From: Candidatus Woesearchaeota archaeon
GTDB lineage: Archaea > Nanobdellota > Nanobdellia > Pacearchaeales > GW2011-AR1
DNA length: 34,236 nucleotides
Reading direction: 5' to 3'
Assembly (NCBI GenBank): GCA_964460535.1
Contig: CAYWQI010000002.1
Location: forward strand, 7,254-41,489
Shown here piece by piece: positions 107 to 13,570 of the stretch (positions are counted from its first letter, which is position 1; the number at the start of each line of letters is the position of its first letter). The translations under genes and the position numbers were made by a program. The notes beneath the pieces are model-generated. The model made no database searches and had not been told where the DNA came from. It saw nothing but the letters and a program-made list of their open reading frames with translations.

Positions 107-943
107 ATGAAAGTAACTAAATTTCACATAATAGGAACAATACTAGCTGTAGTTTTAATTGGAATTTCATTTTTATTTTACACTTCAAAATTTTTCCCTC
201 TTTTATTTGGTCTTGGAATTATTATTGGAATTATGCCTTATGTAATAACTATTATTAAAGAGAATCAAAAAGAAAATGAAAAAGAACAAATGTTTCTTGA
301 ATTTACACGAAGTCTTGCTGAAAGTGTTAAGACAGGAACACCAATAAGTAAAAGTATTATTAATGTTAAGGACAAGCCATTTGGGGTTTTGTCTCCTAAT
401 GTAAGGAAACTTGCAAATCAAATTTCAATTGGAATTCCATTAAGAATAGCATTAAGAACTTTTTCAAGAGATACAAATAATAGGACAATTTCTCGTGCAT
501 TAACTTTAATTGGACAAGCAGAACAAGCAGGAGGGGATATAGGAAAGATTCTTGAGTCAGCTTCATCAGCAATTAATGTTTCTGATAAACTTAAAAAAGA
601 AAGAAAAGCTTCAATTTCAACTCTTGTTGTGCAAGGATATATTATCTTTTTTATATTTATAATTATTGTATTAGTAATGCAATTTAAAATCATTCCAATG
701 CTCTCTGGAATTTCTGGATTTAGTGGAGTAAGTGGAATGGTTGGTGGAACTGAAGGAGGAGCAATAAATCAAAGTGAAATTGCAAATTCTTTTCTTTACT
801 TGTTATTAATACAGGGTTTTTTTTCAGGACTTGCTATTGGAAAACTTTCAGAAGGAAATATTAAAAACGGATTAAAACATTCAGTTGCACTTGTAGTTGT
901 TTCATTTATTATTTTTGTAAGTGCAAACTTGTTATTTGGATAA
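107..943 (+). CDS. Polytopic membrane protein, type II secretion system F-domain / FlaJ-TadC-like pilus or archaellum assembly platform
   Basis: 278 aa with several hydrophobic helices around a soluble loop, as in TadC/FlaJ-family proteins. The next gene starts 1 nt after its stop and encodes a pilin-like signal. Family assignment is by pattern only. Confidence 0.45.
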   Translation: MKVTKFHIIGTILAVVLIGISFLFYTSKFFPLLFGLGIIIGIMPYVITIIKENQKENEKEQMFLEFTRSLAESVKTGTPISKSIINVKDKPFGVLSPNVRKLANQISIGIPLRIALRTFSRDTNNRTISRALTLIGQAEQAGGDIGKILESASSAINVSDKLKKERKASISTLVVQGYIIFFIFIIIVLVMQFKIIPMLSGISGFSGVSGMVGGTEGGAINQSEIANSFLYLLLIQGFFSGLAIGKLSEGNIKNGLKHSVALVVVSFIIFVSANLLFG

Positions 944-11987: not shown

Positions 11988-12614
11988 ATGTTAAATGAGA
12001 ATATTGCAGAACTTGTTGGCATATTAATTGGTGATGGATATATCTATAGAAAAAATAATAAATATCAAATAGGTTTTGTAGGAAATCCTATTACAGATAA
12101 AGAACTTTTTTTTAGAATCCAGAAGATATTATTAGAAGAGTTTAATAAAGAATCTAAATTAACCTTTAGAGAAAGAGGGCTAAGGTTTGTTATTAATTCA
12201 AAAGAAATTAGTAATTTTCTTGTCAATGGATTAAGAATTCCTTATGGAGAGGATAAATGTGAAAAAGTTATTATTCCAAAAGTTTTTATGAATGACTGGA
12301 AATTGTCCAGAAAAGTTTTAAGAGGAATTATGGATACTGATGGAACTGTTTTTGTTTCAAAAAAACCAGGTATAGAAAAATATCCTACCATGGAAATAAC
12401 AACTGTAAGTCAAAAATTAGCCATACAAATTAAGAAAATTTTAGATGAACAAGGATTCAGAGTAGGGAATATAAGAAAATCTCTTTCAAAAATGAATAAA
12501 AGATTTGCATATAGGGTTCCTCTTTATGGAAAAAATAATCTTAAAAAATGGTTAAAAGAAATTGGATTTTCCAATATTTACAAAAAAAACCGTGCCCAAT
12601 CTTATATCCAGTAA
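11988..12614 (+). CDS. Free-standing double-motif LAGLIDADG homing endonuclease-like protein
   Basis: Motifs LVGILIGDGYI and LRGIMDTDGTV. It is not embedded in any recognisable intron or intein and ends 65 nt upstream of the intron-containing tRNA-Phe. Confidence 0.75.
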   Translation: MLNENIAELVGILIGDGYIYRKNNKYQIGFVGNPITDKELFFRIQKILLEEFNKESKLTFRERGLRFVINSKEISNFLVNGLRIPYGEDKCEKVIIPKVFMNDWKLSRKVLRGIMDTDGTVFVSKKPGIEKYPTMEITTVSQKLAIQIKKILDEQGFRVGNIRKSLSKMNKRFAYRVPLYGKNNLKKWLKEIGFSNIYKKNRAQSYIQ

Positions 12615-12679: not shown

Positions 12680-12787
12680 GGGGCCCTAGCTCAGCGGGAG
12701 AGCACATGTTTGTTTTAGTCTTATATGGATTAAAGCAATGTGAAACTGAAGATCATGGTGTCCCGGGTTCGACTCCCGGGGGCCCCA
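12680..12787 (+). tRNA. tRNA-Phe(GAA) with a 36-nt intron (12709-12744) in the 5' strand of the anticodon stem
   Basis: Acceptor GGGGCCC/GGGCCCC plus discriminator A. D arm GCTC-AGCGGGA-GAGC, T arm CCGGG-TTCGACT-CCCGG, variable GTGTC. Anticodon loop CTGAAGA (GAA at 12748-12750) is closed by CATG(A)/TCATG only after removing 12709-12744. Confidence 0.85.
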
Positions 12788-12850
12788 TTTAAGAGTTCTT
12801 ATTTCCTCAAATTCTAAAGAACTCTTTCATCGCTCCCGCGATGTTGAAAT

Positions 12851-12941
12851 AGACTCAAACAGTATGTCTTTGGTTTGACCGAGTTAATCTAATTTATTAT
12901 ATTCTGAAAGTAAATGTAAAAAATAAAATTAGGTTAAGGAG
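12851..12941 (+). repeat. 91-bp direct repeat, copy 1
   Basis: AGACTCAAACAGTATGTCTTTGGTTTGACCGAGTTAATCTAATTTATTATATTCTGAAAGTAAATGTAAAAAATAAAATTAGGTTAAGGAG. It differs from copy 2 at 3 positions, all in the first 16 nt. Confidence 0.9.
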
Positions 12942-13005
12942 ACAGGGGGCCCATTTTGAGATGAAGCAAAAATTCCATCTCAATTTTGTTCTCGGGTTTT
13001 GGATT

Positions 13006-13096
13006 AGATTCAAACTATATGTCTTTGGTTTGACCGAGTTAATCTAATTTATTATATTCTGAAAGTAAATGTAAAAAATAAAATTAGGTTAAGGAG
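13006..13096 (+). repeat. 91-bp direct repeat, copy 2
   Basis: Near-identical to 12851-12941 with a 155-bp period. It is followed by CCCGGGGGCCATTT, a copy of the tRNA-Phe 3' end. Confidence 0.9.
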
Positions 13097-13189
13097 TTTC
13101 CCGGGGGCCATTTCTGAAGAGGATGTAATTCTAAAATAGTAACTACATGGAAAAGTTTAAAAAGTTAATTTTGTATAAATTTTAAGAAA

Positions 13190-13570
13190 ATGGCAAATGA
13201 AACAAGAACACCAAAAAGCAAATTAGGAAGAATAACAAATATGGTTGTCTCTAAATGTCCTGAGATTACTGATATTTTCATAGCAACTTCAGAGGGGGAG
13301 TTTGGGAGATTTACAATCCAGAATAAGGAAGCCTCAGTGGATAATGAATTAAGATACAAAGAATTAGATTTGCAAGGATATTTATCCGAGACTCAGCACC
13401 ATATTGGACATAAGAATATTGGTGCTGATTATGCTAGTAGAAGGGTTGAAGATAGGAGGCAAGAATATTTAAAGAAAATGATAGAAAAAAAAGATCAATT
13501 TGAAGAACCAAATCCAGATTATCAAATTGAACATTTAAGAGAAGAAATTGAAGATAGGAGAAGAGAATAA
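13190..13570 (+). CDS. Hypothetical protein, highly charged C-terminus
   Basis: 126-aa ORF with no recognisable motifs. Confidence 0.4.
   Translation: MANETRTPKSKLGRITNMVVSKCPEITDIFIATSEGEFGRFTIQNKEASVDNELRYKELDLQGYLSETQHHIGHKNIGADYASRRVEDRRQEYLKKMIEKKDQFEEPNPDYQIEHLREEIEDRRRE

Follow-up and report, generated by a model that had tools for sequence, protein, structure and literature searches.

The DNA analysed here, called the window throughout, is a stretch of 34,236 nucleotides (C2:7254-41489) from an archaeal genome of 0.89 Mb in 89 contigs, with a GC content of about 27% and with archaeal 16S, 23S and RNase P RNA present. This genome is referred to as G000 and the sister species of the same genus as G001; other G numbers designate the family genomes used for comparison. 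The window contains an intact tRNA-Phe(GAA) gene, which was missed by ARAGORN at default settings because a 36-nt insert interrupts its anticodon stem. Behind the gene lie two copies of a direct repeat, each followed by a further copy of the tRNA 3' end. The features, all on the plus strand, are as follows.

12680-12787 (+): intact tRNA-Phe(GAA) gene (Rfam tRNA, 49.1 bits)
12709-12744 (+): non-canonical tRNA-Phe intron of 36 nt in the anticodon stem, defined by the intron-less orthologues of G001 and G004
12763-12779 (+): T-stem and T-loop of tRNA-Phe, followed by the acceptor 3' strand (12780-12786) and the discriminator A (12787)
12775-12790 (+): target segment Y0, duplicated downstream, consisting of the T-stem 3' strand, the acceptor 3' strand, A and TTT (CCCGGGGGCCCCATTT)
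12791-12826 (+): trailer hairpin after tRNA-Phe, AAGAGTTCTT (12791-12800)/AAGAACTCTT (12817-12826)
12844-12876 (+): element copy 1, 5' module of 'type B' (..TAGAYTCAAAC..CTTT..)
12872-12879 (+): X' of copy 1, GGTTTGAC, a decayed version of the tRNA-Phe T-stem/T-loop GGTTCGAC
12877-12942 (+): element copy 1, 66-nt hairpin core (CM R1, 76.6 bits, E 1.5e-14)
12945-12957 (+): Y1, tRNA-Phe tail copy GGGGGCCCATTTT (GGGGGCCC-ATTTT), 3 nt past core 1
12957-12982 (+): hairpin TGAGATG (12957-12963)/CATCTCA (12976-12982), a diverged trailer copy after Y1
12999-13031 (+): element copy 2, 5' module, with X' at 13027-13034; the repeat is 95% identical to copy 1
13032-13097 (+): element copy 2, 66-nt hairpin core, identical to core 1 (CM R1, 77.1 bits)
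13100-13113 (+): Y2, tRNA-Phe tail copy with the T-stem 3' strand, CCCGGGGGCCATTT (CCCGGGGGCC--ATTT), 3 nt past core 2

The intron of tRNA-Phe (at about position 30/31) is found at the same place in G244 (L041) and is absent from the same-genus G001 and from G004; it was therefore gained or lost recently. Directly 5' of the intron-bearing gene lies a free-standing LAGLIDADG_3 ORF (11988-12614, plus strand, 208 aa, Pfam 5e-15), and this pairing recurs in G244. A link between the endonuclease-like gene and the tRNA-Phe intron is possible.

A first-pass annotation of the window had reported two extra tRNA-Phe tails, two hairpins and two 91-bp direct repeats with a period of 155 bp. All three tails lie at the positions it gave, and so do both hairpins (12791-12826 and 12957-12982). 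The motif GGGGGCC, common to the tails, occurs three times in the 34-kb window of 27% GC, at 12778, 12945 and 13103 and always on the plus strand, against a chance expectation of 0.38; none of 100 shuffles gave three occurrences. The repeats are near-identical and have the reported period, but they are 98 nt long (12844-12941 and 12999-13096), not 91. Copies 1 and 2 differ at five positions, all within the first 20 nt. The segments that follow the tRNA body, core 1 and core 2 have in common the GC-rich tail, ATTT and a short AAGRG, and diverge beyond. The trailer hairpin at 12791-12826 is native or duplicated trailer, lies outside the conserved element and differs between copies 1 and 2. For the 1.5 kb downstream, which had been considered as part of a possible integrated element, membership in the element is not supported; the repeat structure ends at 13113. 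An ORF right after the array (13190-13570, plus strand, 126 aa) belongs to no Pfam family.

When the repeat was sought across the whole assembly, its central part was found behind other genes. The genome carries seven full copies and one that is cut at a contig end; G001 carries nine. Those outside the window lie just 3' of tRNA-Met (C35), tRNA-Gln (C55), tRNA-Ser (C12), tRNA-Asn (C39) and tRNA-Tyr (C57, the copy cut by the contig end), and, in C6, past the stop codon of a protein-coding gene. Behind each own-genome copy the 3' end of the particular gene is present once more. Beyond this genome, the element is established in 82 of 401 genomes and 56 of 191 genera of the same DPANN family, with copy numbers from one to at least 13, and in an order-wide sample of 301 genomes all positives fell within this one family. 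The type-B 5' module is also present at tRNA-Phe of G004 and at other tRNAs of G001, G296 and G103. A full-text literature search found no description of such an element, and the family appears to be previously undescribed.

These numbers bear on a simple account of the window, a local tandem duplication of a 155-nt unit without any mobile element. The constant period and the two units with identical cores would be expected from such an event, but the core is present at five other loci of the same genome and in 81 other genomes, and the two cores of the window show no difference, in contrast to the strongly diverged remainder of the unit. Local duplication is refuted as a sufficient explanation and is left with almost no probability; copy 2 may have originated from copy 1. 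A duplication after which only the element was under selection is likewise compatible with the window.

Both repeats are copies of a non-coding element that measures about 100 nt and consists of a 5' module and, at the 3' side, a rod-like hairpin core of 66 nt. The core has the layout YGAG, 9-bp stem, 5-bp stem, 3+2 bp closing a GAA triloop, and GGAG. The fold was established from an alignment of 21 copies from 11 genomes, in which 19 base pairs in three helices are supported. Paired cells amount to 88.9%, compared to 73.7% in column shuffles and 25-54% when partners were slid, and cells changed on both sides number 66 versus 21.8 in shuffles; these values are to be read with the proviso that the alignment was fitted to part of the structure and that single-stranded DNA would give an equal signal. 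The second helix and the two pairs that close the GAA triloop covary although they lay outside the model used to make the alignment (C-U-GAA-A-G, C-C-GAA-G-G, G-C-GAA-G-C). A U.G pair is retained in 16 of 20 rows, and the fold therefore works only on the gene-sense strand. Every single sequence folds to the same hairpin, and the minimum-energy fold of core 1 is that of the covariation model. As folding energies are ordinary for the composition (z of -0.3 to -2.2), the case for structure rests on covariation. Judged from the aligned letters, YGAG and GGGAR, which flank the hairpin base, could form tandem G.A pairs.

Rfam, searched at gathering and at permissive thresholds, holds no family for the repeat. 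By eye, the motifs YGAYGAG, CUGA and GGGAR fit neither hammerhead nor box C/D nor H/ACA RNAs, and a reading of the core as an antisense guide is excluded by the conserved U.G pair.

The rule by which sites are chosen was derived from 64 distinct full copies with usable flanks. Thirty of them lie less than 300 nt after a tRNA gene on the same strand, versus three after a tRNA on the opposite strand. In 24 of these 30, at least nine bases of the tail of the same tRNA start 0-7 nt past the core, and at least 14 tRNA identities are represented. The sequence just 5' of the core, X', is likewise a copy of the target and consists of three to five T-stem bases plus TTCGA. Its T-stem bases agree with the local tRNA (GGG for Met, AGG for Gln, CAG for Tyr), and at the HerA site X' reads CCTGGCA in G000 and CTTGGCA in G001, each as in its own gene. 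The order at a locus is gene(X-Y), filler or 5' module, X', core, one to six variable bases, and Y'. The working gene end thus lies upstream and a dead copy downstream, in which the core interrupts the T-loop/T-stem junction. The filler of type-A copies, like that at HerA, repeats X in inverted orientation and abuts X', which results in a tight palindrome rc(X')-NN-X' with a centre of 2 nt.

Duplications of the respective gene end are established over lengths of 11-64 nt. Perfect flanking repeats are found in G028 (64 nt), at HerA (45 nt; C6) and at tRNA-Lys of G103 (36 nt, around an element of 111 nt). The 45-nt repeat in C6 comprises the final codons, the stop codon and four more bases of a HerA-type ATPase gene, which bears an intein. 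A near-perfect repeat of 24 nt (21 of 24 matched) is present at the end of another CDS. Copies with perfect duplications are young. In other copies the recognisable duplication is limited to the GC-rich part of the tRNA, and tails have decayed by transitions and run-length changes in C12, in C39 and in both tails of the window. A unit of constant length, such as a circle of about 150 nt, was considered and rejected, the start-to-start distances of the repeats ranging from 105 to 227 nt.

At tRNA-Phe itself, related copies are present in G004 (same layout, perfect 13-nt tail), G244, G296 and G231. Their subtypes differ, and the site has therefore been hit repeatedly. The comparison of this locus in relatives, which the first-pass annotation had recommended, was productive in these four genomes; the G001 contig (C18) stops inside the T-loop of tRNA-Phe, and no empty tRNA-Phe site was obtained from this genus. 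A break at this point is what an assembler would do when confronted with a duplicated T-arm. Contigs C35, C6, C12, C55 and C57 of G000, besides C18 of G001, likewise end either some 300 nt or less from an element or in the T-loop of a tRNA; duplicated gene ends probably break short-read assemblies.

The array had originally been interpreted as a set of att sites or the scars of integrase-mediated insertion, left by a remnant island or served by a recombinase encoded elsewhere. Of this proposal, the scars have held up in so far as the tails are footprints of insertion into a tRNA gene, within its 3' part, and repeated use of the site is reflected in their tandem arrangement; the integrase origin has not. 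On this model the units would be CIME-like miniatures without an integrase, acted upon in trans by a tyrosine recombinase with its crossover in the T-loop and accumulated by tandem accretion. Direct repeats of the tRNA 3' part do flank inserted DNA and leave the gene intact, and insertion in the T-arm as well as tandem arrays (in the window, and with three units in G015) resemble attL/attR. A preference of integrases for the T-loop sublocation was reportedly noted by Williams in 2002. However, the repeat differs from target to target (at least 14 tRNA identities, HerA and another CDS) and measures 11-64 nt, so that no fixed att site can be named: the family stands behind different tRNAs and protein-gene ends, each time with a duplicate of the local gene. 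Moreover, the core sits between X' and Y' where attR should be contiguous, one to six variable bases occur at the junction, and the copy in the DNA polymerase gene PolB (see below) has no repeats at all. The inserted units are gene-less and only 90-110 nt long, about 100 nt as a rule, and no integrase or other recombinase recurs beside them. An att array is accordingly regarded as improbable.

Filled and empty versions of the same site are established by a comparison of two congeners. In G296 the tail of tRNA-Lys(UUU) and a homologous trailer occur once and without the element; in G103 they occur twice, around the element. Conversely, PolB of G296 contains the core, which lies in-frame between the motifs ExoI and ExoII and encodes the peptide KTSDFARKNSEGKNKNSERGQE, whereas PolB of G103 lacks it. 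The element is thus tolerated in an essential gene, and this insertion came without a long duplication. The duplication is not obligatory, as the PolB case demonstrates; it may represent a separate rescue event picked out by selection. Two further ORFs, both long, continue through the core in this same frame, and about half of the cores have two open sense frames out of three, versus 19% in shuffles. About half of all copies are located away from tRNAs, some of them in-frame in PolB and other ORFs.

Three loci add detail on protein genes. In L034 (G324:C142) an ORF of at least 250 aa runs through the core and through a degenerate second copy just before it, giving the tandem peptide repeat ..SSDFAREKF..ERDR / EPSDFARFNPEGKFEKSERGRE. 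In L038 (G214) and L015 (G033), which belong to two genera, the core lies at the extreme 3' end of a topoisomerase I gene; as read, the core of L038 provides the last 20 or so codons and the stop of that gene.

The T-loop is also the site of some non-canonical archaeal tRNA introns. If the core were an intron of the bulge-helix-bulge type, invading T-loops and removed from the RNA by splicing, the split tails would be retired ends of intron-containing genes. The position of the element in the T-loop and the non-canonical intron of this very tRNA-Phe are in keeping with such a mobile intron, but no core was found inside any tRNA call (a partial test, as ARAGORN sees only introns of the anticodon loop), and an intact gene lies upstream of every tRNA-linked copy. 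In two cases deletion of the core joins two ORFs; one of these proves to be the end of a topoisomerase I gene and the other an intergenic gap. Copies within ORFs keep the frame and leave it open, as translated sequence would, and no convincing bulge-helix-bulge could be drawn at the junctions. An intron of this kind is very unlikely. A split tRNA half or an alternative 3' half was rejected as well: the upstream tRNAs are complete, the tails decay, and ends of protein genes are hit too.

More weight is due to the idea that the core and its tRNA-derived arms form a functional RNA module of the host that is co-transcribed with tRNAs and needs its tail. It could act as a processing or termination signal, as a protein-binding (L7Ae/K-turn-like) element or as a decoy of the tRNA T-arm and acceptor end. 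Strong covariation, a conserved loop and the occurrence in many genera speak for it, as do YGAG...GGGAR at the hairpin base (possible tandem G.A pairs, as read from the alignment), the perfect tail copy in G004, the fact that X/X' and Y/Y' follow the species-specific sequence at the HerA site of G000 and G001, and the invariable gene sense of the element behind tRNAs. Against it stand a patchy distribution (20% of genomes, with copy numbers from one to at least 13), the copies remote from tRNAs, roughly half of the total and including those in-frame in PolB and other ORFs, the decay of older tails by transitions and indels (C12, C39, window), and the filled/empty polymorphism. The first-pass annotation had offered, as an alternative, a small RNA with a tRNA-mimicking 3' end. 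A conserved, folded unit with compensatory changes does exist; the mimicry is disfavoured, as old tail copies decay and the tail is therefore more likely a by-product. It had also proposed compensatory changes in distant relatives as the mark of a structured RNA. Such changes across genera were found in the core. Altogether a functional RNA is unlikely, though less so than an att array.

A search for an enzyme or a carrier was carried out around the copies. Among the neighbouring genes at the loci examined, no protein family recurred beyond ordinary syntenic genes, and no full-length relative encoding a transposase and having the same ends was found beside the 64 copies. RVT_1 is present in 33 of 82 element-bearing genomes (40%) and in 157 of 401 genomes overall (39%), a comparison weakened by the incompleteness of MAGs, and several high-copy genomes are without RVT_1. 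An association with reverse transcriptase was rejected given these like frequencies. With respect to viral carriers, one sequence pattern gave no match, and a looser pattern gave 16 IMG/VR contigs, none of which was confirmed by the covariance model.

The explanation we favour, with a probability of roughly 0.65 for the whole, is that the two 98-nt repeats represent a mobile element, non-autonomous, non-coding and some 100 nt long, which is restricted to one DPANN family and inserts at the ends of essential genes while leaving these intact. The window would then result from two successive insertions at the T-arm of tRNA-Phe, leaving two spare tails; the copy that adjoins tRNA-Phe is probably the younger one. 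Against a mobile element stand the compensatory conservation across genera and the perfect 13-nt tail in G004 at what may be an old insertion, which could speak for a host function over selfish spread.

For the favoured mobile element, any model of insertion has to place the core at X|Y and leave X-Y intact upstream of it, and has to accommodate a repeat whose length varies, untemplated bases where core and Y' meet and, in some copies, an inverted X. In addition, the repeat often stops at a T-run or past a trailer hairpin. A simple staggered cut explains the repeat, but neither X' nor the palindrome rc(X')-NN-X' of the type-A and CDS copies. As a tentative mechanism, to which we would give somewhat less than an even chance, we infer a nick in a target stem-loop, into which the hairpin is copied with a single-stranded intermediate, RNA or DNA, as template, and re-copying of the target end by a template-switching polymerase. 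The landing site is the loop of a target stem-loop, in tRNA genes the T-loop/T-stem junction. The 3' end at the nick would prime copying of the hairpin from the single-stranded template; copying would next switch back onto the target, where a short copy of X would be made and, after fold-back, Y re-copied. Insertion at a gene end comes with a duplicated stretch of target that starts at the insertion point and reaches 11-64 nt further downstream, with the outcome gene(X-Y) - [5' module - X' - core] - Y', that is, an intact 3' end upstream and a dead tail Y' after the core. Selection would discard events that fail to restore an essential gene, while at tolerant sites, such as the PolB loop, a plain insertion would survive. 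This course of events would account for the variable length of the duplication, for the one to six untemplated bases between core and Y', and for the inverted-plus-direct copy of X in some copies.

The element was compared with known systems of small mobile DNA. Rickettsia palindromic elements (RPEs), reportedly described by Ogata and colleagues in 2000, resemble it in several respects: both are small, gene-less, hairpin-forming, multi-copy and patchy, without a known enzyme, and both are tolerated in-frame in essential genes (here PolB, with a homologue that lacks the insert), frames being open above chance. Unlike RPEs, the present element is archaeal, unrelated in sequence, and strongly prefers tRNA T-arms and gene ends, where duplications of 11-64 nt keep the gene whole; RPEs are not known to make gene-preserving duplications. 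MITEs, Correia elements and REP/BIMEs (mobilised by RAYT) are also non-autonomous hairpin or inverted-repeat elements that often lie just 3' of genes. The outer 9-bp stem of the present element could be read as terminal inverted repeats in the manner of MITEs, yet this stem does not enclose the 5' module, and covariation extends to the inner helices. Furthermore, the target duplication is not fixed as in MITEs but ranges from 0 (PolB) to 64 nt with imprecise junctions. Distinct from MITEs, Correia elements and REPs alike, no related transposase-bearing element lies beside the copies at the loci examined, and the element folds throughout, with covariation of inner helices and a strand-specific U.G pair.

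With attL/attR sites and CIMEs the element shares direct repeats of the tRNA 3' part, an intact tRNA, entry in the T-arm and tandem arrays. It differs from them in its size of about 100 nt, in having no integrase, in taking its repeat from whichever gene is hit, in the interruption of the distal copy by the core, and in also hitting protein-gene ends and ORF interiors. Target-primed reverse transcription (TPRT) of SINEs and LINEs likewise yields variable target duplications, extra bases at the 3' junction and a variable 5' extent, and the conserved 3' stem-loop could serve as a polymerase handle; in contrast to SINEs and LINEs, the present element occurs in a prokaryote, has no association with RVT and ends without a poly-A or repeat tail. 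Finally, Fujishima and colleagues are said to have proposed transposition, in 2010, for the non-canonical (T-loop) introns of archaeal tRNAs. These occupy the same place in the tRNA, and small archaeal genomes are rich in odd tRNA introns, but the present element was never seen in a working gene copy (among the tRNA calls), no bulge-helix-bulge could be shown for it, and no sign of excision was seen.

tRNA genes are classic landing pads of large integrating elements. Here, the footprint at tRNA ends stems from a gene-less element of about 100 bases that is present in a fifth of the family genomes and even inside a DNA polymerase. The more far-reaching idea that this is a hitherto undescribed kind of DNA movement, in which a hairpin of about 66 nt that has no protein of its own is copied from a single-stranded intermediate into stem-loops that have been nicked in essential genes, namely tRNA T-arms and hairpins at gene ends, while a template-switching polymerase acting in trans rebuilds the gene end upstream, is put forward as a doubtful one. 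If it were true, the element would colonise the safest and most conserved sites of a minimal genome, and the same process would be a possible source of non-canonical tRNA introns in archaea and of short peptide inserts in proteins. New insertion chemistry would add an extra class of prokaryotic mobile DNA and would explain why, in these genomes, 'orphan tRNA ends' recur, assemblies break at tRNA genes and proteins have odd peptide inserts. The defined 66-nt hairpin and the clear target sites make the question testable at the bench.

Several further loci deviate from the common pattern. Behind tRNA-Lys(CUU) in L089 (G296:C9), a different insert of about 230 nt is flanked by 23-nt repeats of tRNA tail plus trailer, the second of which is preceded at a distance of 32 nt by AAATCCCT, a short copy of the T-loop; the style of insertion is the same and the cargo a different one. 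The mirror image is seen in L081 (G004:C57), where the first 12-14 nt of tRNA-Phe (AAGGGGCCCTAGCT) are duplicated about 55 nt upstream, around a different insert of 41 nt. In L031 and L032 (G001:C2 and G001:C4) cores lie inside a larger repeat, about 150-250 nt long, that is GC-rich and looks structured. In L031 the interrupted flanks are adjoined by a version without interruption, CCGCAAAAGAAGGGAAGGTACTAGGAAACCG, and the core therefore seems able to bring old flanks to a new site. Lastly, a tRNA-like gene with extra inserts (GCGGGGTGGAGCAG...TTCAAATCCTGCCCCCGCTA), reported neither by ARAGORN nor by the Rfam tRNA search, was noticed in G000 (C12:~360-470, plus strand). Only some 27-29 tRNAs were called in this genome, and several may be hidden by unusual introns.
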